From a virus: a stretch of 64,000 bases of DNA. The position numbers and the translations under genes are program-made. The notes beneath the pieces are model-generated. The model saw nothing but the letters and a program-made list of their open reading frames with translations. It searched no databases and was not told the DNA's origin. Shown here piece by piece: positions 6,935 through 51,528 of this stretch (the stretch's first letter is position 1; every line of letters starts with the position of its first letter). Where the stretch lies: IMG/VR virus record IMGVR_UViG_3300035670_000147, positions 9,294 to 73,293 of that record; one strand, written 5' to 3'.

Positions 6935-7006
6935 TGCCCGGTAGCACAATGGTAGTGCACGGCACTGTTAATGCTGGGGTTGTAAGTTCGAGTCTTACCC
7001 GGGCAG
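6935..7006 (+). tRNA. trnN: tRNA-Asn (GTT), CCA not encoded
   Basis: Acceptor stem TGCCCGG/CCGGGCA; D arm GCAC/GTGC; anticodon arm CGGCA-CTGTTAA-TGCTG; T arm GTAAG-TTCGAGT-CTTAC; discriminator G. Confidence 0.95.
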
Positions 7007-9279: not shown

Positions 9280-10314
9280 ATGGCTAAAGGACTCGACGTC
9301 GGAACTTCTTTTATCGTGCTGGCCTCGGACTCAGACGCCCCGATTAGTTACACCAGCGACGACAAGTTCGGGTACGTCAAATACACCGATTTCCGCGACG
9401 CCTTTTTCGTCATTAAGCCTACGACGCCAGTCGCCACGAAGATGATTGAAAAGGGCTTGCAGGGAAAAGTGTTCGTGAAAGACACGGACGGCTCATTTAT
9501 CATTCTCGGTCAAGACGCGATCGAAAAAGCCATCGAGCGTAACGAGTCGGCCAAGCGCCCCATGTATCGCGGCGTTGTAAGCCCCAAAGAAAAAGAAGCG
9601 AAGCGCGTGCTGGCCTACATTCTCCAGCAGGTGTGCGGCCAAGCCAGCGAGCCGGACGAAAAGTTGGTGTTCTGTATTCCGGCCCAGCCCGTCGATCAAG
9701 AAGACGACGAGTTTGATGTCGGATATCACGAAGATGTGGTCAAAACCGTGCTGCAGGGCCAAGGGTACAGCGCGCGGGCGATCAACGAGGCGGAAGCCCT
9801 GTGCTACTCGGAGTTGGAGAACGACGATTACACTGGCGTGGCGCTGTCGTGGGGCGCCGGCATGGTGAACTGCTGCGTCATGCTCAACGGCGAGCCCACG
9901 GTGACGTTCTCGACCACGAAATCGGGCGACTGGATCGACCGCATGTCGGGCATTGCGACGGGCGAGCCGGATAGCGTCGTGCAGGCCGAGAAAGAAAATG
10001 GCGAGTTCGTAATTGGCGAACAGAATGACAATCCGGTTCTCGCCGCGGTCAGCGCCTACTATGAGCGGCTGATCGACTACACCACGAAGCAATTGGCAAA
10101 TGCGCTCCGCGGGCACAAAGCCTTGCCCAAGTTCAAGAGTCCTTTGCTCGTCGCGTTAGCCGGCGGAACAACGCAGGCGCAGGGTTTTGTGGCGATGTTT
10201 GAAAAGAAACTGGCGGAGAATGAGTTTCCGTTGCCGGTCAAAGAAGTGCGCCACGCCGCAGACCCTTTACACGCAGTTGCCCGCGGTTGTTTGATTGCTG
10301 CCAAAGTGCTCTGA
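9280..10314 (+). CDS. Actin-superfamily ATPase (MreB/FtsA/MamK-like)
   Basis: Phosphate-1 GLDVGTS, connect-1 INEAEA, phosphate-2 LSWGAGMVN, adenosine LAGGT, connect-2 PLHAVARG. Confidence 0.85.
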   Translation: MAKGLDVGTSFIVLASDSDAPISYTSDDKFGYVKYTDFRDAFFVIKPTTPVATKMIEKGLQGKVFVKDTDGSFIILGQDAIEKAIERNESAKRPMYRGVVSPKEKEAKRVLAYILQQVCGQASEPDEKLVFCIPAQPVDQEDDEFDVGYHEDVVKTVLQGQGYSARAINEAEALCYSELENDDYTGVALSWGAGMVNCCVMLNGEPTVTFSTTKSGDWIDRMSGIATGEPDSVVQAEKENGEFVIGEQNDNPVLAAVSAYYERLIDYTTKQLANALRGHKALPKFKSPLLVALAGGTTQAQGFVAMFEKKLAENEFPLPVKEVRHAADPLHAVARGCLIAAKVL

Positions 10315-40845: not shown

Positions 40846-41835
40846 ATGGCCGTCATTGCCACGCCTACGTCTCACGCGCTCGAACAATGCTGTGACAACC
40901 GCAATACGGCGCCCGTTTTGACGCCTGTTTCGTGCGCGGGGCAAAGCATAGTTAGCGCCCCGATCTCTGAGCAAAACGGCCAGCCCGTCCTGACGCGAAT
41001 GCGGGCTATTTCGATTACACAAGGCCAGTGCGCCACAATTACGTGGCAAATGCACGATAAAGACGGCTTGCCGGTCGACATGTCGGCGTGCAACGAACTG
41101 CCGCTAAAAGTCGTATTGCGCCTGCGCGAACAAATTGCGCTCAGCCACACGTCGCCAACAGTGCAGGTCGACGCGACAGTAACGGACGCAGCGACAGGCA
41201 AGATCGAAGTACAACTAACTAAAAATATGGTCGGAATACCGGGAATCTTTTATGGCGAAATGGCGTTAATCAACATTCCGGCCGAAGAAGCCGGGCTGCC
41301 ATGCGTCGTATTCTCGAACACTTTTTACGTAATTATTAACCGCAGCGCTTTTGATGCGCGCGGCGGGCTGAATAGCGGGCCACCGAGTGTTGCCGAGATC
41401 AGGCTGCATTTACGAGATTCAGCGCCGAATGAAAGTTATCTGTTAGAACATTTAATGTTTGATGACGCGGAAATCGCGCTCGCCATCGGCCGCCCAGTTA
41501 TGTACTGGAACGAGACGCCGCCTCCGCTGCGCACATTCAGCACACAAAACTTTCCGTTCAGATATCATTGGCTTGAAGGCATTTGCGCCAATTTATTCAT
41601 GATGGTAGCCGAGCAGTTTCGGCGTAATCAGTTGACTTACTCTGCCGGCGGAATTCAAGTAGACGACCAAAACAAAGAATCGTCGTACGAACGCGCGGGT
41701 CAGGCGCGCTGGCAGGCTTACCGCGAATGGGTCAGAGCCACGAAAGCCAGCATCAACCTCGAAAGTTGCTATGGTGAGGTGTCGTCGAACTACAAATACA
41801 GCGCCTACACCGACGCGATCAGGATTCGGTACTAG
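40846..41835 (+). CDS. Putative head-tail adaptor/neck protein with N-terminal Ig-like domain
   Basis: ITQG...DAATGKIEVQL (BppU-like) followed by a helical IRLHLRD...FDDAEI...WNETPP domain; position after the capsid operon. Confidence 0.55.
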   Translation: MAVIATPTSHALEQCCDNRNTAPVLTPVSCAGQSIVSAPISEQNGQPVLTRMRAISITQGQCATITWQMHDKDGLPVDMSACNELPLKVVLRLREQIALSHTSPTVQVDATVTDAATGKIEVQLTKNMVGIPGIFYGEMALINIPAEEAGLPCVVFSNTFYVIINRSAFDARGGLNSGPPSVAEIRLHLRDSAPNESYLLEHLMFDDAEIALAIGRPVMYWNETPPPLRTFSTQNFPFRYHWLEGICANLFMMVAEQFRRNQLTYSAGGIQVDDQNKESSYERAGQARWQAYREWVRATKASINLESCYGEVSSNYKYSAYTDAIRIRY

Positions 41836-41861: not shown

Positions 41862-41945
41862 CGCCGTAAGTCGTTTATTTTCAAACACTTACGACGTCAG
41901 GGTATTGCTTGCGCGCCGTAAGTCGTTTATTTTCAAACACTTACG
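41862..41945. repeat. Two identical 32-bp direct repeats, each an imperfect palindrome, separated by 20 bp
   Basis: CGCCGTAAGTCGTTTATTTTCAAACACTTACG at 41862-41893 and 41914-41945. Confidence 0.95.
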
Positions 41946-42122: not shown

Positions 42123-42656
42123 ATGAAGAGCGTGAGTTTAGCCACTCAGGACGTTTTGGCTCAGTTTCGCAAAAAGGCGGCTGATTTGCCGTACGAGTCC
42201 CACCCTTACGCGAACGCCGCACGCGGTCGCGACAATCTCGGTCTTTCCGAGTGGACCGAGGAGCACCGCCACGACGCCACGATGGCGATGGCTATGTGGG
42301 TGACCATGATCGTCGGCCAGTCGATTGCGTCGACGCTGAACGAAATGGTGGCGCTCATGAAAATCGCCTGCGAAACGGGCGACGAAGAGCATAAGAAGGC
42401 CGCCGACGAACTCGCGGGGTCTATGACGTTTGTTGAGAACGTTTTTAAGACTTTTATGTGCTCTATCGATTTTGAGCACGTCGCTGAGCAATTGTTTGCG
42501 GACGGCGAAAAGATGGAGAAAGAGCGTCGCGAAGAATTCGCGGCGGCGGAGGCGGCGAAGGCAAAGGTTGCGAAGTCAAATATCGACAACCCAACCCCGA
42601 GCCCGGCGCCCCTGAGCGGCACCGTTCACCGGCGCTGGGAGCCGAGCCAGAACTAA
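42123..42656 (+). CDS. Hypothetical protein, first gene of the inserted island
   Basis: GGAG RBS; followed by a terminator. Confidence 0.65.
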   Translation: MKSVSLATQDVLAQFRKKAADLPYESHPYANAARGRDNLGLSEWTEEHRHDATMAMAMWVTMIVGQSIASTLNEMVALMKIACETGDEEHKKAADELAGSMTFVENVFKTFMCSIDFEHVAEQLFADGEKMEKERREEFAAAEAAKAKVAKSNIDNPTPSPAPLSGTVHRRWEPSQN

Positions 42657-42678
42657 CGCAACAGCGTTAGCGGCCGAG

Positions 42679-42725
42679 AAAGAGCCACCCCAGAATGCAG
42701 TCTCTGGGGTGGCTCTTTTATTTTT
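42679..42725 (+). terminator. Rho-independent terminator
   Basis: AAAGAGCCACCCCAGA/TCTGGGGTGGCTCTTT stem followed by a T tract. Confidence 0.8.
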
Positions 42726-42743: not shown

Positions 42744-43574
42744 ATGTCCGCTTCCGTTGAAACGCTGCTGCCCGGCTATCACGCGCGGCGGCGTGAAAGT
42801 TTGGCCGCCAAGTTGTTGGCGCTCGTCACCGACACGGTTCGTGCCGCACTCCTTGTCGGGGCTCCCGGTACCGGAAAGACTTTCTTTGCCGAGTGCTTTG
42901 CGCGCGGCAGGAAGGCTAAACACTACTTCATTCCGTGCCATCCTTGGTTGACCAACGAAGAGGTTAATCAGGGCGTGGATATCGGCAAGGTGGCGGTCGG
43001 CGTCGCGCACGCAGATGAGGCGTATCTTGACGGCCAGTTGCTGCGCGCGGTCAAAGCAACGGCACATCACGACGTCGTCATCACGCTCGACGAGGTGGAG
43101 AAGGCCGGCAGTCGGTTCTACCCGCTTATTCTGGACTTTCTCCAGCACGGGCGGGTGCCAGACGCGCGACACCACATGCACCAAGCCGACCTGAAACGAC
43201 TCTTTATCGTGCTTACCGCGAACGAAGAGACGGACTTGCCCGAAGCCGTGAAGCGTCGATGTTTTCGCGTGATCATGGAATTCCTTCCTGAGCACATCGA
43301 GGTCGACGTCTTACGGAAATCGACCGGCGCGCCGGGAGGGGCTTGTCGGCTGGCGGTGCGCATGGCGAACGCCATTCGCACCCGCGGCGAATCCAAGCCG
43401 AGCCTTCAGGAGTTGCGTGAACTTCTGCGGTCTCGTGTTTTGGTGGAATCCGCGGCGGACACAGACGCGCTGATTGACGGGTTTCTCGTAAAGGACCCGA
43501 AGGACCGCGCCGCAATCGAACGTGAAATTCGTTCGCCCGGCGCAGTCTTGTTCGGCGAGTTCGGGAGGAAGTAG
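42744..43574 (+). CDS. MoxR-like AAA+ ATPase
   Basis: Walker A GAPGTGKT, Walker B TLDEVEK, sensor-1 LTAN, arginine finger EAVKRRC. Confidence 0.85.
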   Translation: MSASVETLLPGYHARRRESLAAKLLALVTDTVRAALLVGAPGTGKTFFAECFARGRKAKHYFIPCHPWLTNEEVNQGVDIGKVAVGVAHADEAYLDGQLLRAVKATAHHDVVITLDEVEKAGSRFYPLILDFLQHGRVPDARHHMHQADLKRLFIVLTANEETDLPEAVKRRCFRVIMEFLPEHIEVDVLRKSTGAPGGACRLAVRMANAIRTRGESKPSLQELRELLRSRVLVESAADTDALIDGFLVKDPKDRAAIEREIRSPGAVLFGEFGRK

Positions 43575-43644
43575 TCAACGGGGCGCGACTCTGTGGCGGG
43601 AGTCGCGCCCCGTACACCCACGCCACGAAAGGAGGTTGCAAATC

Positions 43645-45096
43645 ATGGCTATAACACTTCGTGAAATGCAGAAGTTTTTGAGCCTGTCGCGGCGCGACGG
43701 GGTGGTGGATTCTGCGCTATACCCGTGGCGCAAAACCGTAGCGCGATTTGCCAATTTCGTGGCGGGGCATAAGCGCTTTCGTAGAGTAGTACTTGACCGC
43801 GGATTAATTGTAAACACGTGCACTTGCAACGAATGCGTGTTTGCCGGGCGGACAACCAACCCGCAGTCGCTTGTCGACTCGTTAACGCGACGCTACGGTC
43901 CTTATGCCGATCTTGATGACGTTTTGAACGATCTGGAGCGAGCGGCCGCCGAAAAGCAGCCGCAGCAACCCCAGCAAAACGAGCAAAGTCAGCACGAGCA
44001 GCCGGCGCAGGAGCAGGAGCCGCAAAACCAGCAATCGCAGGGCGGTCAGGGTTCGGACAGCGATCAGGACGGCGATCCCGACCCCGACGGGGCGGGAGAA
44101 CCTGACGCGCAGTCTCAGCCCCAGCCGGGACAATCTCGCGCGCAGCCAACCGGTTCTGCGCCTGAGTCGTCTCAGCAGCCGCACCCGCAGCAGGTGTTGC
44201 AGCAGATGAAAGAGGCTTTTCGCGAGGCAGTTCGGACGGCGCAACGGCAGCCCAACTGCCCCGTTGCCGCGAATAACCTCCGGCAGGCAAAGAAGTTGTT
44301 GCGAGAAACTCGTAAGCGGGTATCGGTTAAACCGAGACCTGTGCGCGAGGGTCCTTCGCTCTCCGCTCGGAAACACCTGACAACTTCCCACGGGAGGTTG
44401 CGGCGTGTGCCGCAAAATTTGCGGAGTCAGATGGCCGAACTGATTAATCGGCTAGTCTTACAGGCCGGGACATCAGGTTCCCAACTGGGTCCTATTCCTG
44501 TATTGAGCCCGCGTAAACTTGTAAATAGGATGCTTGTCCAGCGTCCGTTACAAAACGCACTCAAGGAAGACAGCGTCAGCGGACGTCCGGTTACGCTGTT
44601 TCTTCCAGACATTTCGCCGAGTTGCGAGGCGCAGGCTCAGATCGCCTGCGACCTTGCAAACGCGGCAGGGTACGCCGGAATCTCAGGTTCCGACGTGTTG
44701 GTTTTTCCGCACTGCAACGGCGAAGTGTCCGCGCACGAGGACTACTTTCCGTGGCTTAACGGGAAGCCAGTTACCGACGCCGTCCGCGAGATTCCCAAAC
44801 TCTACGAGGACGTTTGCACCGGTCACAGTCGTTTTAAGGTTCGTGTTGTCGTCTTACTAGGCGACCACGACGCGGTTCATCATTACGAGAAAATCGCGGC
44901 ACTCAAGACGGTGCTCCGAGTCGTCTGGCTGCATAACTACCGGTCCTCGTCGGACCGGCGTGACGCGGCGCTGGAGGAATCCAGTTCTTTCCTCGCCCCG
45001 GGCTGGTCTACCGAGGTGATGGAAAAGTTGTCGTTGGTGTCTGGCTGCACCACGACGACAACAATGCTTCGCGGCTTTGGTTTGGCCGTGAAGTAA
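43645..45096 (+). CDS. vWA/MIDAS-domain partner of MoxR with Gln-rich disordered linker
   Basis: AGGAGG RBS; MIDAS-like LPDISPS (DxSxS) and VVVLLGD; Q/E/P/D-rich linker. Confidence 0.7.
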   Translation: MAITLREMQKFLSLSRRDGVVDSALYPWRKTVARFANFVAGHKRFRRVVLDRGLIVNTCTCNECVFAGRTTNPQSLVDSLTRRYGPYADLDDVLNDLERAAAEKQPQQPQQNEQSQHEQPAQEQEPQNQQSQGGQGSDSDQDGDPDPDGAGEPDAQSQPQPGQSRAQPTGSAPESSQQPHPQQVLQQMKEAFREAVRTAQRQPNCPVAANNLRQAKKLLRETRKRVSVKPRPVREGPSLSARKHLTTSHGRLRRVPQNLRSQMAELINRLVLQAGTSGSQLGPIPVLSPRKLVNRMLVQRPLQNALKEDSVSGRPVTLFLPDISPSCEAQAQIACDLANAAGYAGISGSDVLVFPHCNGEVSAHEDYFPWLNGKPVTDAVREIPKLYEDVCTGHSRFKVRVVVLLGDHDAVHHYEKIAALKTVLRVVWLHNYRSSSDRRDAALEESSSFLAPGWSTEVMEKLSLVSGCTTTTTMLRGFGLAVK

Positions 45097-45148
45097 ACGC
45101 AGCAACCGCAGCGCAGAAGGGAGGTAATAAGGTGTTTACGTAAATACG

Positions 45149-45693
45149 GCCCGCGGAGTTAACAACTCGCGCGGGCAATCTATTTTGCGCATTTTAGTTC
45201 GTTGGCGCAGAGTAGACGTAGGACGAAACTAACGAGCACAGGCGAGCGAAAAGTCGCCCGGGGACAAAAGTCGCGACCTCGTCGGTTGCGATACTTTTCG
45301 GGGTGGTTGGTCCTGCACCCATAGAGATACCAGAGAGATAGCCGGGACGTCGCGCAAGCGAAACGCCGGCGACTCGTCTCTGTAAGGCACAGTACCCCGG
45401 ATTTGTAGTGGGGCGCGCAAAATGGATAGGCAGGCGCGTTTTATGTAAAATCCGGAGCGCCTGCGGGCGCTTATACGCCACGTCTGAAGGGCCTAGTCCC
45501 CGCAGACATGTTTCCTCGTTGTACCTTTCGGCCGCGATAATAATAACTAACGCGCGCCGGTTGTTGCCGCCATGGCCGGTGAACAACGAGCCAGTTAACG
45601 CGCGAGCCCGCGTAAGCGGGTCGTTAACGGGGGACGCCGGGTGGGAGAGTTGCTAGCCTCTCCCACCCGGCGCACATCGCACTTCTTTTTTTT
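45149..45693 (+). ncRNA. Unassigned large structured RNA or structured 3' region (~550 nt)
   Basis: No credible ORF; about 12 stems including a long-range 13-bp helix (45178-45190 with 45415-45427); ends with a 15-bp hairpin (45635-45672) and a T tract. Confidence 0.55.
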
Positions 45694-45723
45694 AGATATC
45701 AGACGCCGGGGTATAATTACGCT

Positions 45724-47013
45724 ATGAGCCAACCACGCATTTTTCCGTTCCGCCGCGTATCTGTCGACCACATGACCCGCGGCGTTTCGCGTGTCTGGTG
45801 GCAATTAGACCGCCTTTTTCGCGACGAGGGTCCGTACTCTTTTCAATTGCAGTACGGCCGCACGGGCGTCCGCGACGCCGCTGACTGGACAAATATCGGG
45901 GCGCCCGTCGTTAATTCATACTTCGCGCTCGACCCAGAGTGGCGCGAAAGCGGCTACGATATAACCTCGCATTATCGTGTCGTTTTAACTACTCCGAACG
46001 GTCGCTATGTTTCTCAGGCAGCCAGTTGCTTTGGCGAGTTAACCGAAAAAGACTGGTTACTTGCCCGAGAGATTATTCGCAAGGAGCAGTTGCGCAACCG
46101 GCTCGTATCAATTCCCGGTTATTTGATTAAGCCACTGCGGTACGGTACACCCTGCAAACGGTGCCGCGACCAGTTAACTGACGAAATCTCAGACGCTGAT
46201 TGCCCGCTCTGTAGCGGCACCGGTTTCGAGACTGGATACCATACCCCCGTCCCGCTGCAGTGTTGGGATTTGTCGCCGCAAGTTATTCAAGAACAAATCG
46301 ATAATAACATCAAAGGCAATACGCGAGAAAACCCATACGTTAATGCACGCGTAATCGGCTTCCCGGCGTTAAACAAGTACGATATCTGGGCCAACGGCTC
46401 GTCCGACGAGCGCTGGATGATCGATACAATACAGGTAACAGCCGCCTTGCGGGGCGTGCCGATTATCTATCAAGTGCGCATGGGATTATTACCGTTTAGT
46501 AACGCCGTATACGCAATCGAGATTGGCGGAGAACCAGCCGCTCGCCGCGGGCCCACCCTGCCGATAGAAGGTTGCGGCGACGTTATTGTAGACCACGATT
46601 ACACGGGTATTGATGCTTTAATTTATACAACGGCTGCCGGCTGCCCTGTAGAAGGTGCTGATGTTTACTTGTTTACAAAAGAGTCCTTTGACGCGCACGG
46701 ATTAAATATTGACCGAAGTTTGGCGGCTGGTAAAACAAAAACACGGGTTAACGGGCGCTGGTTACAGTCGCTAAAACTCGACGCGGGCGATTATGTTATC
46801 TTGTACGAGAAGGTCGGCGAGTACGGACCGGACACGCAAGAAATAACCGTCGCGCCTCCCGAGGCCCCGCTGCCAATGTCATATCCGCCGGTTATGGGTT
46901 CTCACGAACCGCCGCCGGCGCACCAATTACCGGTCGGACGGAAAATACGTACTGTTGTGCCCGGCCGCCCGTCGCCGCCCGATCAGACCGAAAAAGGTTT
47001 CTGGGATATATGA
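45724..47013 (+). CDS. Putative head-closure/neck protein with Zn finger and C-terminal beta-sandwich
   Basis: CKRC...CPLCSGTGF..GY; lies between adaptor and tail terminator; apparently leaderless (GTATAAT at 45711-45717). Confidence 0.55.
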   Translation: MSQPRIFPFRRVSVDHMTRGVSRVWWQLDRLFRDEGPYSFQLQYGRTGVRDAADWTNIGAPVVNSYFALDPEWRESGYDITSHYRVVLTTPNGRYVSQAASCFGELTEKDWLLAREIIRKEQLRNRLVSIPGYLIKPLRYGTPCKRCRDQLTDEISDADCPLCSGTGFETGYHTPVPLQCWDLSPQVIQEQIDNNIKGNTRENPYVNARVIGFPALNKYDIWANGSSDERWMIDTIQVTAALRGVPIIYQVRMGLLPFSNAVYAIEIGGEPAARRGPTLPIEGCGDVIVDHDYTGIDALIYTTAAGCPVEGADVYLFTKESFDAHGLNIDRSLAAGKTKTRVNGRWLQSLKLDAGDYVILYEKVGEYGPDTQEITVAPPEAPLPMSYPPVMGSHEPPPAHQLPVGRKIRTVVPGRPSPPDQTEKGFWDI

Positions 47014-47970: not shown

Positions 47971-50900
47971 ATGTCGAGTTATATCAAGCCACAAGTATTA
48001 GTCTTCCAAGAGTTCCGGATCGTCCCGACGGAGATCACGGAACCGCTGCGCGCCCACATCGCCGGCCCGCACGCCATCCTTCACCGCTACAGCGATCTTG
48101 ACGAGAAGAAGACCATTCTTCTTGGGCAATATGATCGGCTGAACGACATTTGCTATCTGTGGCCGTCGCGTCGGCCCGGTTCGATCGTCGACCTGCCGTA
48201 CACGAAGGTGTATATGGACGACGCGCTGCTGAAGTATTTCGACCACGTACTTCAGAGCACGTACACCACGATCACCGCGGTAGACGGCAAGTTCAACTGG
48301 ATTCAATCGGACGATCTTTCGTTTAAGTCCAACACGTCGGCTTATCCGCGCAGCAGCGACTTCCTCGACCGCGACGTGGCGGTTGGCGACGTCGCTTACC
48401 TGCGCACGGTGTATGACCGCGACGACGAGTGCCGCGAAATCGAACTGTGGACTGAAGTTGTTGGCTTTGCTAGCGACCTCGTCGACTCTTTGATCAAGCC
48501 CGCCGAAAACGACGAAGACAATCAGCCCAACACGCTGGCTTACTGCGGTATCCCGAACCCGGCCGTGGGCGACGATGGGCAGCCCGATGCTGACAACAAC
48601 TATTTGCAAGTTGCCGGCAAAGAAAACTGCGTCAAACTCGTCGAACTTGACGGCGCTGCTTACAACGGCCTCGCCAGCGGCGATGTCGAAGAAGAGTACA
48701 CTATTCAAGTTATTAAGAGCACCGTGTCGGGGTGCAACGCCGCGCGTCTGCGCGTGCGCAGCGCCAGCGGCCGCGACGATCAAGAAGAAGTTGTGCCGAA
48801 CGACATGGGCCAGTGGACCGAAATCGGCACCCGCGGCTTGAAGGTCAAGTTTAACGTGCTTGACACCGAAGCCTGCATCGACGCCTCGGTGGCGAACGAC
48901 GTTGTTTATGATAACTTTGTCACCGGCCAGAAGTGGGTCGTGGCCGTGGCGCAAGAGTTTTACGCCGCAGACGCCGACTCGGCTGCTGACGGGCAGTTCA
49001 CGGTGCAGTTGGACGGCGACATTGCCGGCGCTTACAACGGCGCTAAGAACGACGTTTACATTGTTGAGGTCACGAAGGGCGGCGCGTTGGACGCCGTGGT
49101 CGCCGATACGCTCGGCTTCCCGGAAATCACCGTACGCACCGTCAAAGGTCTCGACATGTCGGGCCCCACGGAGGTTGTGGAAAACGGCGGCGAAATCGGC
49201 ATCGGTACCAATGGCGTAAAGGTCATCCTGTCCGTCCCCGGTCCGGTGTCCGCGCTTGAGTTGCAAAACGGCGGCAGCACGTACACCACGGCTCCCACCG
49301 TGACGATCGTCCCGCAGCCCGGCGAGCCGGGACAGGGCGCGACGGCTACGTGCACTATTAATGACGACGGCGTCGTCGACAGCATCACCCTGACAAACGC
49401 GGGCAGCGGTTACTTGAATCCGCCGCAAGTCGTGTTTACTGGCGGCGGCGGGACGGGCGCTTCGGCGCAGGCCTCGCTGAACGTCGGACTCCGGAAGGGT
49501 GACAAGTTCTACGTCGCGGTCGTTTCCAGCAAGGCTGGTCCGGTGCGCAAACTCATCCTTCGCGACGACCTGCCCAGCGAAATGCGCGACACCTACGTGC
49601 GCGCTTCGACTGTTAAGCAGTCGGTCAAGGTGGTTGCCGACGCGAACATCACGTTGGAAGGCCTGCAGACAATCGACGAAGTCGAACTGGAAGCCGGAGA
49701 ACGCGTGCTCGTAGTCGACCAAGATGACGCGACCGAAAACGGGGTTTACGTTGTTAGCGCCGAGGCGTGGACTCGCGCCACCGATTTCGACGAAACATCC
49801 GAAATCTCGAAAAACGTTTACGTTCCGGTACTGTCCGGCGACACTTATGCCGGTTCGGGCTGGGTCGTGACGAACAGCGGCACGGTCGCCGTTGGTGAAT
49901 CTGTTATTAACTTTGTGCGCGACGACGAGGCGAACACAGATCGCCCCGTGCCGCTCGACCTGAAGTTGTTCATTAAGGACGACATCCAGATTTCGCGCGT
50001 CCGTCCGGAGACTTATGCTCTGACGAACTACTGGTTCGAAGACACGCAAATCTGCATTCAGGAAGGCATCACTGCCTATCATCCTGACTGGACGGCGACG
50101 GGCGTCGAGCAGCCGCTTCCCGTTGAAGCGGGCAAGGTGTACGTCGAGTACCGCGAATGGCTGGCCGAGTTCGCTGACGAAGTAAATTCGATCAGCGACG
50201 TCGCCGATCTTGACGATCTTGCCGGGCAACTTCACCCGGATAACCCGCTGAAGTGGGGCGTGTACAAGGCGCTCTCCAACAGCAACGGTACGGTTGTGAA
50301 GTACACCGCGGTTGCCCACCCTGAAGAGTTCGATGAGACCGGGAAAATCCTCGGCCCCGACCTCGACAGTTGGGTACAGGTGCTTGAGCGCATCAAGGGT
50401 CGCGACGATATGTACAACCTCGTACCGATGACGTTTGACCGCAGGGTGCAAAACCTGTGGGCTGCGCACATCGGCGCCGAGTCGAACGAGATCGCCAACA
50501 ACTGGAAGGCCGGCTTCTTCTCCCTTAAGGCCGAGCCGAAGCAACTGGTTGTCGGCGAGGGCGCCCTTATCAAGGGCGTGCTTGGCGAAGTTATGGAGCC
50601 GATGCTTGCTACGCTGAAGGACGACCCGAACGCTACGGGCCAGCAGTACACGTTGCTGCAGGTTCCGCAGGGTACGACTTTCGCTAAGGGCTACTTCATC
50701 ACCAATGAGGTGCAGCCGGGCGACATCGTGCGCTACAACTTCTCGGTCGACCAATACGGCGAGGAGCAGTACGAAGAGTATGTTGTCGATCAGGTTCTGT
50801 CGGAAAACTCGCTGCGGCTGTTCACCGGCGCTGACGCGCCCGTGACGCAGGAACAGCGGTTTGAAATCTGGCACAACCGGAACCGCAACGAGATCGCGGA

Positions 50901-51528
50901 GGACATTGCGCAGCAAGCCGGTTCGCTTTCGAACCGCCGTATCTGCGCCGTGTGGCCCGATCAGGTAGGCGAGGCTGGCACGAGCCAGCCCGGCTACTAC
51001 CTCGCCGCTGCGCTCGCTGGTCTCGTCTCCGGCGTGGTGCCTCACCAGCCGCTGACGAACGTTGAGGTCGCCGGTTTCGACGACTTCACGCGGTCCTACA
51101 AGTATTTCAATGAAACGCAACTGAACCGCATGGCGGAAGCCGGCGTGTGGATCGTCACGGAAGACCGCGACGGCACCCCGCACACCCGGCACGCTCTGAC
51201 GACGGACAACCTCGACCTGAATCGTCGGGAAGAGATGATCCGCCGCAATGTGGACTCGATGTCGTACCTGTTCCTGCGTCGGCTGCGTCCGTTCATCGGC
51301 CGCACCAACGTGCAGCCCGGCATGTTGCGTCGTCTGAAGTTCGAGGTCGAAACAATCATCAACTTCCTGTCTAACAACGGCAACACGGAAGAACTGGGCT
51401 CGCAGTTAATCTCCGGCGAAATCCGGAAACTGCAAGTGCATCCGCTGCTGAAGGACCGGATTGAGATTGTGCTGGACCTCGTTGTTCCGGCGCCGCTCAA
51501 CAACATCGAACTGCACTTGGTCGTCTGA
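47971..51528 (+). CDS. Contractile tail sheath protein with inserted domains
   Basis: N-terminal YIKPQVLVFQE; C-terminal PGYYLAAALAG...QPLTN...RHALTT...RRNVD...VPAPLNNIELHLVV. Confidence 0.85.
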   Translation: MSSYIKPQVLVFQEFRIVPTEITEPLRAHIAGPHAILHRYSDLDEKKTILLGQYDRLNDICYLWPSRRPGSIVDLPYTKVYMDDALLKYFDHVLQSTYTTITAVDGKFNWIQSDDLSFKSNTSAYPRSSDFLDRDVAVGDVAYLRTVYDRDDECREIELWTEVVGFASDLVDSLIKPAENDEDNQPNTLAYCGIPNPAVGDDGQPDADNNYLQVAGKENCVKLVELDGAAYNGLASGDVEEEYTIQVIKSTVSGCNAARLRVRSASGRDDQEEVVPNDMGQWTEIGTRGLKVKFNVLDTEACIDASVANDVVYDNFVTGQKWVVAVAQEFYAADADSAADGQFTVQLDGDIAGAYNGAKNDVYIVEVTKGGALDAVVADTLGFPEITVRTVKGLDMSGPTEVVENGGEIGIGTNGVKVILSVPGPVSALELQNGGSTYTTAPTVTIVPQPGEPGQGATATCTINDDGVVDSITLTNAGSGYLNPPQVVFTGGGGTGASAQASLNVGLRKGDKFYVAVVSSKAGPVRKLILRDDLPSEMRDTYVRASTVKQSVKVVADANITLEGLQTIDEVELEAGERVLVVDQDDATENGVYVVSAEAWTRATDFDETSEISKNVYVPVLSGDTYAGSGWVVTNSGTVAVGESVINFVRDDEANTDRPVPLDLKLFIKDDIQISRVRPETYALTNYWFEDTQICIQEGITAYHPDWTATGVEQPLPVEAGKVYVEYREWLAEFADEVNSISDVADLDDLAGQLHPDNPLKWGVYKALSNSNGTVVKYTAVAHPEEFDETGKILGPDLDSWVQVLERIKGRDDMYNLVPMTFDRRVQNLWAAHIGAESNEIANNWKAGFFSLKAEPKQLVVGEGALIKGVLGEVMEPMLATLKDDPNATGQQYTLLQVPQGTTFAKGYFITNEVQPGDIVRYNFSVDQYGEEQYEEYVVDQVLSENSLRLFTGADAPVTQEQRFEIWHNRNRNEIAEDIAQQAGSLSNRRICAVWPDQVGEAGTSQPGYYLAAALAGLVSGVVPHQPLTNVEVAGFDDFTRSYKYFNETQLNRMAEAGVWIVTEDRDGTPHTRHALTTDNLDLNRREEMIRRNVDSMSYLFLRRLRPFIGRTNVQPGMLRRLKFEVETIINFLSNNGNTEELGSQLISGEIRKLQVHPLLKDRIEIVLDLVVPAPLNNIELHLVV

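Follow-up and report, generated by a model that had tools for sequence, protein, structure and literature searches.

The DNA analysed here is a 64-kb stretch (64,000 nucleotides, called the window below) from positions 9,294 to 73,293 of IMG/VR virus record IMGVR_UViG_3300035670_000147, and all coordinates are numbered along this window. The source record spans 73 kb with a CheckV completeness of 36%; its complete relatives are genomes of 198-210 kb. The evident genes of the window all lie on the + strand. Among them, a gene for an AAA+ ATPase of 276 amino acids (aa; 42744-43574, +) is followed by a gene for a vWA/MIDAS-like protein, listed with 524 aa (43522-45096, +). Between the stop codon of the latter (45096) and the ATG of a 429-aa open reading frame (ORF; 45724) lies a gap of 627 nucleotides (nt; 45097-45723) with a G+C content of 56%. 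Inside this gap, on the + strand, is a structured RNA of ~570 nt (~45120-45693), and we hold it to be almost certain that this locus encodes a real, selected, structured non-coding RNA. An earlier note, made from the letters of the sequence alone, had called the region the largest non-coding gap, and this was borne out: no stretch of the window that lacks a credible gene is longer, the runner-up having 227 nt, in a ranking that disregards a non-conserved 82-aa frame at 45408-45656.

Homologous loci were retrieved with an alignment of relatives of the downstream 429-aa protein (45724-47013), which has at least 221 relatives, many of them on ~200-kb contigs. This alignment query gave 56 viral loci, while a search of viral contigs with a single protein returned nothing. 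In eleven of the 56 loci, representing seven distinct sequences, the ATPase and vWA-like genes are present and are followed by a gap of 580-1150 nt. Metagenome contigs added two further copies of this cassette (L110 and L111; such handles are ours), from a scan that yielded three loci only, one of them a truncated copy of L043. In total, ten distinct gap sequences were available from ~200-kb uncultivated phages and metagenome contigs, with RNA lengths of ~480-700 nt across the family, and L003 is the closest relative of the window RNA. The known carriers are confined to ~200-kb uncultivated phages of subsurface and other metagenomes. There is no cultured relative in GenBank as judged from its phage records: neither blastn of the gap nor tblastn of the vWA-like and 429-aa proteins gave a match in 50,697 of these records, and an alignment of the vWA-like protein searched against one genome per prokaryote species returned nothing. 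Scans with short patterns led back to the same family. The pattern CCGGNRAACAACGAGCC occurred at 39 loci in viral contigs, with the other motifs present only in five already-known contigs, and the pattern GGGACGTCGN{2,32}CGAAACGCC occurred at 21 loci in viral contigs, where a covariance model of part of the RNA (R1, see below) matched only four known contigs, and at 120 or more loci in genome contigs, of which 80 were examined and none matched R1. Near-identical copies of the gap occurred in four DNA runs. They showed two differences, each at low depth (G>A at 45560 and a base inserted after 45312), both at positions unpaired in our model and too weak for use.

The + strand of the gap folds with a minimum free energy (MFE) of -275.2 kcal/mol, compared to -233.2 ± 6.7 kcal/mol for 20 shuffled sequences (z -6.3), and the comparison of folding energies proposed in the earlier note thus came out better than chance. 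The - strand also reached a z of -4.35, and a sequence with 56% G+C folds stably anyway, as would be expected of a functionless GC-rich spacer that happens to fold well. Against such a spacer, covariation among the homologues lies far above all controls. The ten sequences consist of near-identical blocks interspersed with variable inserts, and these blocks survive where the flanking proteins are only 37-60% identical. A first RNAalifold run on a crude alignment showed compensating changes in 32 of 59 pairs. Helices were named first and their pairs were counted afterwards on MAFFT sub-alignments; overall, 87-89% of the 91 tested pairs were paired, compared to 31-48% when partners were slid, and 61 of the 91 changed on both sides. 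In the 5' domain (P1, PK1 and P2-P5; nine sequences, 48 pairs), 86.7% were paired compared to 38-47% in the slid controls, 33 pairs changed on both sides, and none of 500 shuffles reached the observed values on any of five measures. P6 and P6b (seven sequences, 19 pairs) were 87.3% paired compared to 31-48%; both sides had changed in 14 of the pairs, and the observed values were not reached by any of 500 shuffles. The 3' helices P7, P8 and P8b (nine sequences, 24 pairs) were 88.9% paired compared to 35-43%, again with 14 pairs changed on both sides; here, on four of the five measures, no shuffle out of 500 attained the observed value, and on the fifth 17 of 500 did. Rows with inserts that break the alignment were dropped (L036 from the 3' set and L111 from the 5' set), and L036, L043 and L111 were dropped from the P6 set. 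The shuffle control overstates significance because the sequences are related, but the slid-partner control preserves this relatedness and gave an equally clear result. Because of these counts, we regard the spacer explanation as refuted.

Over the counted helices, G-U cells outnumbered A-C cells by 73 to 17, and the RNA is therefore assigned to the + strand, as the earlier note had read from its G-U pairs. Relative to L003, the window shows 18 indel events, most of them 1-2 nt long, and 98 substitutions that lack codon periodicity, and no reading frame common to the homologues was found. Three frames in the gap, of 82 aa (+), 130 aa (-) and 40 aa (+), were considered as genes and rejected, being broken in L003 by 1-2-nt indels and lacking codon periodicity.

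In the structure, all of it on the + strand, ten or more helices covary and a pseudoknot joins a loop to a strand; some helices end in GNRA loops, and there are internal loops of invariant sequence. Near its 5' end, the hairpin H0 (45149-45176), seen in the sequence and in the MFE fold, is present as previously described but is found only in the window and L003. It is followed by the hairpin P1 (45179-45190 with 45205-45216, loop 45191-45204), in which 10 of 12 pairs changed on both sides. The 5' strand of P1 had earlier been placed in a 13-base-pair (bp) long-range helix (45178-45190 with 45415-45427), which is not conserved: its 12 Watson-Crick pairs and one G-U pair are present in the window, its 5' strand is changed in L003 while the local P1 hairpin is preserved there via compensating changes, and in the other homologues its 3' strand sits within helix P6b. 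Part of the P1 loop (45197-45204, GUUCGUUG) pairs with a strand just 5' of P2 (45230-45237, UAACGAGC) and forms the pseudoknot PK1. A contiguous PK1 helix of 6-9 bp, differing in sequence, was present in all nine homologues examined, whereas shuffled loops gave a mean of 4.8 bp, with at least 7 bp in 8.6% of 2700 trials; on the MAFFT alignment, five of its seven pairs changed on both sides.

Downstream of PK1, the hairpin P2 (45241-45258) is 92.5% paired with three of six pairs changed on both sides, and it leads into a joining strand (GGACAAAAG, 45262-45270) whose columns are invariant or nearly so. P3 (45270-45292) carries a conserved loop of the CUCGU/CUUGU type, with eight of nine pairs changed on both sides. 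The GGGUG/CACCC hairpin P4 (45301-45320) has a conserved UGG-containing loop and is 75.6% paired in a count for which the alignment is one column off in three rows. The P5 domain (45331-45382) is built from an outer extension, found in the MFE folds of nine of the ten sequences, the helix P5 (45341-45345 with 45366-45370), a nearly invariant 4x4 internal loop (GACG/AACG) and an inner stem, the helices being 95% and 94% paired; the inner stem is capped by the GNRA loop GCAA (45354-45357), with GCAA or GAAA in 5 of 10 homologues. In the P6 domain (45397-45455), P6 (45397-45404 with 45448-45455) and P6b (45408-45418 with 45434-45444) are separated by a GUA/GUA internal loop. The two strands of P6 (CCGGATTT and AAATCCGG) had been proposed as a pseudoknot; they form instead a nested helix that is 94.5% paired with five of eight pairs changed on both sides, and the true pseudoknot, PK1, is a different one. 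A formerly listed hairpin at 45430-45464 competes with the conserved P6, is lost in L003 and is not conserved.

The 3' part starts with P7 (45482-45507), which is preceded by a conserved UACGCCACG and has 8 of 10 pairs changed on both sides. P8 is a three-way domain (45515-45590) composed of the helix P8 (45515-45522 with 45583-45590), a variable P8a (45529-45559) and P8b (45564-45582) with a conserved 7-nt loop; P8 and P8b are 100% and 94% paired, respectively, and five of the eight P8 pairs changed on both sides. The hairpin P9 (45594-45628) contains a GNGAR internal motif and the GNRA loop GUAA (45612-45615), with stems that vary among homologues, so that GNRA tetraloops cap P5 and P9, plus P8a in L024. 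Between P9 and the terminal hairpin lies a G-run (GGGGGA, 45629-45634) that could form a tentative second pseudoknot with a C/U-run after the 5' strand of P8 (45524-45528); both runs occur in most homologues, in a low-information pairing drawn by eye. Overall, the stems previously listed at 45241-45258, 45266-45298, 45301-45320, 45344-45380, 45482-45507 and 45515-45590 were confirmed by covariation (P2-P5, P7 and P8), whereas those at 45594-45628 (P9) and in the terminal 15-bp hairpin (P10), together with the T tract, recur in the homologues, P9 and P10 in all of them, as judged by eye and from single-sequence folds. A pairing of the purine-rich ribosome-binding site with the 3' U tract suggested by RNAalifold was rejected as low-complexity and without covariation.

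With Rfam 15 at gathering score, the whole window gave only a transfer RNA (tRNA) at 6935-7006, which is also the only tRNA in the window according to ARAGORN (tRNA-Asn); the latter found neither a tRNA nor a transfer-messenger RNA (tmRNA) in the gap. At E <= 10 over 44900-45900, the only Rfam match was a spurious mir-1303 (16.3 bits compared to a gathering score of 107). The gap is likewise unmatched by the Rfam models for GOLLD, ROOL, OLE, HEARO, raiA, RNase P, 6S, group I/II introns, self-cleaving ribozymes and riboswitches, in agreement with the earlier note, which had found no fit to tmRNA, RNase P, group I/II intron or hammerhead cores. The RNA exceeds 400 nt, is non-coding and has many covariation-supported helices, which are the properties of large ornate structured non-coding RNAs. 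It is a previously undescribed RNA family of this large ornate kind that belongs to none of its known families, and the proposal of a novel large phage non-coding RNA is supported by the lack of an Rfam match and of a conserved frame and by strong covariation in ten homologues.

The 5' end of the RNA carries a Shine-Dalgarno (SD) sequence GGAGG (45120-45124) followed by the mini-ORF GTG TTT ACG TAA (45132-45143), which encodes M-F-T and a stop. This layout is shared by nine of the ten sequences: an SD-like sequence (GGAGG in seven, GGTGG in one and AAGGAA in one) stands 5-7 nt ahead of a start codon, which is followed by 2-4 more sense codons before the stop, for an ORF of 3-5 codons. Four homologues encode MPFP with only synonymous differences at third positions (CCC/CCG/CCA and CCC/CCT), and the remaining peptides are MFT in the window, MNFT, MTWP, MHWPR and MGTQ. 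It looks like the peptide itself is under selection, usually with an aromatic residue and then Pro or Thr before the stop. The combination of GGAGG, a start, up to four more sense codons and a stop occurs nowhere else in the 64-kb window.

At the other end, the 15-bp hairpin P10 (45635-45672) has an 8-nt loop with the palindrome GCUAGC (45652-45657). The P10 loop contains a 6-nt palindrome in six of ten homologues (GCUAGC in four, UCGCGA in one and UCAUGA in one), compared to 2 of 56 other apical loops and to 4.7-6.2% per loop by chance, and a palindromic loop in this position would be the layout expected of a loop-loop self-association site. A U8 tract (45686-45693) is the probable 3' end, located 13 nt past P10 in the window and L003; in most homologues, the U tract directly follows the hairpin. 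Immediately outside the RNA lies a promoter-like AGATATCAG ... TATAAT for the next gene (45694-45717). This TATAAT ends 6 nt before the ATG of the 429-aa gene (45712-45726) without a ribosome-binding site between, and the 429-aa messenger may be leaderless.

The order of mini-ORF, hairpins, terminator-like hairpin with U tract and gene is also that of a leader-peptide attenuator that would govern read-through into the structural gene at 45724-47013. We consider such an attenuator highly improbable. Known attenuators are several times shorter than this element. The downstream gene is found in all relatives, without the RNA element in 45 of 56 loci; the stretch from the U tract to the gene contains the conserved promoter-like motif, which also follows unrelated insertions; and L005 and L110 have a further small gene (129 aa in L005) that separates the RNA from the 429-aa gene. 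This extra gene (2984-3500 in L005 and 1685-2500 in L110) has its own promoter-like motif and a ~100-nt leader conserved between both contigs.

In all 10 homologues, the RNA comes right after the vWA-like stop codon on the same strand. The covariance model R1, which covers the P8-P9 region with the P8 domain as its core, scores 89.9 bits on the window and matches 14 of 15 cassette-bearing sources, the fifteenth (L109) ending before the modelled part. R1 matched none of the 45 loci without the cassette. On whole genomes, it matched all three that bear the cassette (94.9 bits, 66.5 bits and, in G008, only a partial match of 19.1 bits) and none of seven genomes that are 98-100% complete with a cassette-less locus; a genome-wide search of five of these seven found neither the ATPase nor the vWA-like protein. 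Among the matches listed in the R1 and motif scans, the RNA was not found alone or with other cargo. The ATPase gene, the vWA-like gene and the RNA come and go as a unit, an accessory cassette that sits between two core structural genes. The record behind L003 is the same as that behind L098, a single 198,312-bp record annotated by IMG/VR with direct terminal repeats; both of its ends fall inside the vWA-like gene, and the cassette is therefore split across the record ends.

The 329-aa and 429-aa core genes flank a hot spot for insertions. In most of the 56 loci, the 429-aa gene directly adjoins a 330-aa gene homologous to 40846-41835, or small unrelated ORFs lie between the two. Insertions of every kind end with a terminator hairpin, TTAGCTATCAGCG, 7-10 nt and TAYAAT, a junction seen in L022, L025-L030, L032, L034-L035, L037, L041, L042 and L050; the TTAGCTATCAGCG...TAYAAT motif is absent where the core genes abut and occurs once in the 64-kb window. 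The 740-nt insertion of L022, for instance, holds two 94-aa ORFs and has an unremarkable fold (z -2.2). In the window, the insertion also includes a 197-aa ORF (probably 177 aa from the ATG at 42123; to 42656) with a TFxxNVFK..SID motif as in the ORFs at 3120-3404 of L022 (pairwise E 6e-5), and a strong terminator (42678-42719) lies between this ORF and the ATPase gene. At the upstream insertion edge, where 227 nt separate the 329-aa core gene from the 197-aa ORF, there is a perfect 32-nt direct repeat (41862-41893 and 41914-41945, 52 nt apart); the window holds no further copies of it, and each of the two has a small hairpin.

A hot spot, a perfect 32-nt direct repeat at the opposite insertion edge and an RNA with a complex fold, GNRA loops and pseudoknots are what a ribozyme or mobile-RNA remnant, such as a self-splicing intron that brought the cassette, might leave behind. 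We judge such an origin very unlikely, as no Rfam intron or ribozyme model matches even at E <= 10, no reverse transcriptase, maturase or homing endonuclease gene is found nearby, and no gene is interrupted by the RNA.

The first gene of the cassette matches PF07728 (AAA_5; E 1.4e-12, 48.3 bits, cut-off 22), which places it among MoxR/dynein-related ATPases, and its product is 69-83% identical across five aligned cassette loci and 96% identical in the L003 contig. The second protein probably starts at a conserved M42 and consists of a basic N-domain, an acidic low-complexity linker, a strongly basic segment (residues 226-345) and a C-terminal MIDAS-like domain. It has no Pfam match at E <= 1 and no relevant NCBIfam match. 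Its motif D363-x-S365-x-S367 is invariant in six of six homologues. With an AF2 model of pLDDT 61, the best Foldseek matches were weak, namely MDN1/Rea1 MIDAS (E 2.4e-3), then collagen VI, CaV alpha2delta and NorQD (range to 0.1), with TROVE and Ro60 structures at E 0.029 and 0.091 only; among its atlas neighbours are clusters with vWA families in 15-23% of their members. The earlier name, MoxR/vWA pair, is therefore a reasonable one as regards the ATPase, and no more than probable as regards the second gene. Residues 226-345 have a net charge of +16 to +20 in all six RNA-linked homologues. PADLOC returned only generic AAA matches. Further downstream, the 429-aa protein has no Pfam or PHROG match and carries four invariant cysteines (C144, C147, C160 and C163) with a zinc-ribbon-like spacing. 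A 1064-aa antisense frame (47998-51192, -) overlaps a 1185-aa structural gene (47971-51528, +) with Ig-like and tail-sheath-like PHROG matches and is probably a shadow frame.

The pair has distant homologues (31-33% identity; hhalign probability of 97% for the vWA part) in phage contigs of ~18-44 kb (L270-L275). In L271 (3254-5921), for example, a 511-aa ORF has the ATPase domain as its C-terminal portion; after it come a 405-aa protein with an LFLPDxSPSC motif as in the vWA-like protein and a 450-nt gap that contains a terminator, folds with a z of -3.2 and is not similar to the RNA. In one such distant vWA homologue without an adjacent RNA, the matching 120 residues have a net charge of -18, which is a hint from one lineage only.

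Between the vWA-like gene and the RNA, no conserved terminator and no strong promoter motif were found, a scan for the sigma-70 consensus having given only two weak 9-of-12 matches on the + strand of the gap, and the RNA is therefore taken to be transcribed with both genes. We put at roughly 40% the reading, mechanism included, that the RNA is a stable structural partner of the ATPase/vWA-like pair. It would be produced as the 3' part of the ATPase-vWA transcript and then persist as a stable species, with ribosomes loading at the mini-ORF shielding its 5' end and the terminal hairpin its 3' end. The RNA would serve the pair as a client or scaffold, the conserved basic segment of the vWA-like protein being the likely contact, and it may pair with a second RNA copy via the palindromic P10 loop.

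The same position, on the same strand right after the vWA-like stop and with a hairpin and a U tract at the end, could also be that of a cis-acting 3' untranslated region that governs the stability or translation of the ATPase-vWA messenger and has no role of its own. Long bacterial 3' untranslated regions with regulatory roles exist, as described in excerpts of PMC3868564 and PMC6299119, and they provide a precedent. However, ~500 nt with ten covarying helices, a pseudoknot, GNRA loops and invariant internal loops exceed what stabilisation needs, and a ribosome-binding site with a mini-ORF past the last gene is unexpected, which makes a purely cis-acting element unlikely in our view. More room, though still on the doubtful side, is left for a phage RNA that acts in trans and on its own, for example as a decoy or sponge of a host protein, in host takeover or anti-defence, or on the ribosome it recruits, and that merely shares the mobile cassette. 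The hot spot holds unrelated small genes in other relatives and its cargo need not be related, distant ATPase/vWA pairs lack the RNA, and the strong ribosome-binding site with the mini-ORF would bring a ribosome. A free-standing RNA of this sort is harder to reconcile with its place directly after the vWA-like stop in every homologue, with the lack of a conserved terminator in front of it and of sigma-70 matches stronger than 9 of 12 on the + strand of the gap, and with its absence, among the matches listed, from other settings.

Several points weigh against a partnership of the RNA with the two proteins. The link is one of genetic association, and it could reflect one shared insertion history, given one phage family and ten distinct sequences. 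No detectable copy of this RNA family lies beside the distant pairs of L270-L275, and an ATPase/vWA pair can therefore work without it. Accordingly, the suggestion of the earlier note that the RNA possibly acts with the AAA+/vWA pair is supported on genetic grounds by R1, which is found only with the cassette, and weakened by the distant pairs; likewise, co-occurrence with MoxR/vWA genes, which it had proposed as a check, holds for every copy found in the ~200-kb phage family and does not extend to the distant pairs. The vWA assignment itself is probable, on the basis of a motif and weak fold matches. No RNA run was found to contain the sequence. In the window, termination may be inefficient because the U tract lies 13 nt from the hairpin. 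The mini-ORF is missing in L111, and the peptide MGTQ of L110 is off the pattern of an aromatic residue followed by Pro or Thr. The P10 loop is without a palindrome in 4 of 10 homologues, three of which (L024, L036 and L111) share the non-palindromic loop UCAUAGUA, for which no consistent internal partner was found in these three sequences.

Structured non-coding RNA families above ~400 nt are rare, and each has so far come with unusual chemistry or unusual assemblies. The present family has strong comparative support from ten sequences alone, and its two constant protein neighbours point to experiments, a lead that other orphan large RNAs mostly do not offer. If the RNA does bind the AAA+/vWA-like pair, RNA would join the clients of a chaperone family that is very widespread. 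If no such binding exists, the RNA is still a compact and well-defined target for structure determination and would be an instance of a translated mini-ORF fused to a structured RNA.

Similar to GOLLD, ROOL, OLE, HEARO and raiA, the phage RNA is hundreds of nt long and non-coding, with many covarying helices and pseudoknots. Unlike them, it always follows the genes for an AAA_5 ATPase and a vWA-like protein and has its own 5' ribosome-binding site and mini-ORF. GOLLD and ROOL are found in phages or prophages. An excerpt of PMC12286853 describes GOLLD, ROOL and OLE as forming homo-oligomers, and the palindromic P10 loop would suit self-association of the phage RNA as well. For the loop itself, the closest parallels are the kissing-loop dimerisation hairpins of retroviral genomes and the phi29 packaging RNA with its intermolecular loop-loop contacts. 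The layout is the same, with a self-complementary 6-mer in an 8-9-nt apical loop after two unpaired 5' bases, and the P10 sequence varies yet remains palindromic (as GCUAGC, UCGCGA or UCAUGA); the difference is that the palindrome here is present in just 6 of 10 homologues, and any dimerisation is putative. The 5' end, with a strong SD and then a very short ORF at the start of a long untranslated RNA, resembles ribosome-bound 5' stabilisers and minigenes: in the B. subtilis hbs mRNA, ribosomes initiating at a strong SD block the 5' exonuclease RNase J1 (excerpt of PMC5737220), and minigenes of 3-8 codons trap tRNA as peptidyl-tRNA (excerpt of PMC2490762). Here, in contrast, the RNA is structured and not a messenger, and the peptide seems selected.

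The two genes follow the order of known MoxR-vWA pairs (RavA-ViaA, NorQ-NorD, CbbQ-CbbO and CoxD-CoxE), in which an AAA_5 ATPase gene precedes a MIDAS-motif gene. The phage pair differs from these in that its vWA-like protein fits no Pfam vWA model and that none of the others is known to have an RNA component; to our knowledge, no MoxR-vWA system with an RNA component is known. Searches of an open-access library gave nothing relevant on a MoxR/vWA-linked RNA or on this RNA class. MoxR-vWA conflict systems are the subject of Kaur et al. 2020 (PMC7159879, in excerpt). Precedents for an RNA partner come from further away, and the resemblance is partial. No Y RNA model matches the phage RNA, the TROVE/Ro60 fold matches (E 0.03-0.09) are weaker than those to Rea1, and RNA binding by the phage proteins is hypothetical. 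Ro60, a TROVE and vWA protein, acts with Y RNAs of ~100 nt, and Rea1/Midasin combines a MoxR-related AAA+ ring (AAA_5 type) with a MIDAS domain on the pre-60S particle, both binding or remodelling RNA-protein particles. The MIDAS domains of MDN1/Rea1 are the best, albeit weak, fold matches of the phage vWA-like protein (E 2.4e-3). By analogy, the locus might encode the first MoxR-type AAA+/vWA machine with an RNA, and with it a new kind of ribonucleoprotein made during giant-phage infection, a proposal we regard as bold and rather unlikely as a whole: a self-associating, ribosome-recruiting phage RNA of ~570 nt would be remodelled as a client, or used as a scaffold, much as Rea1 acts on the pre-ribosome or Ro60 with its Y RNAs.

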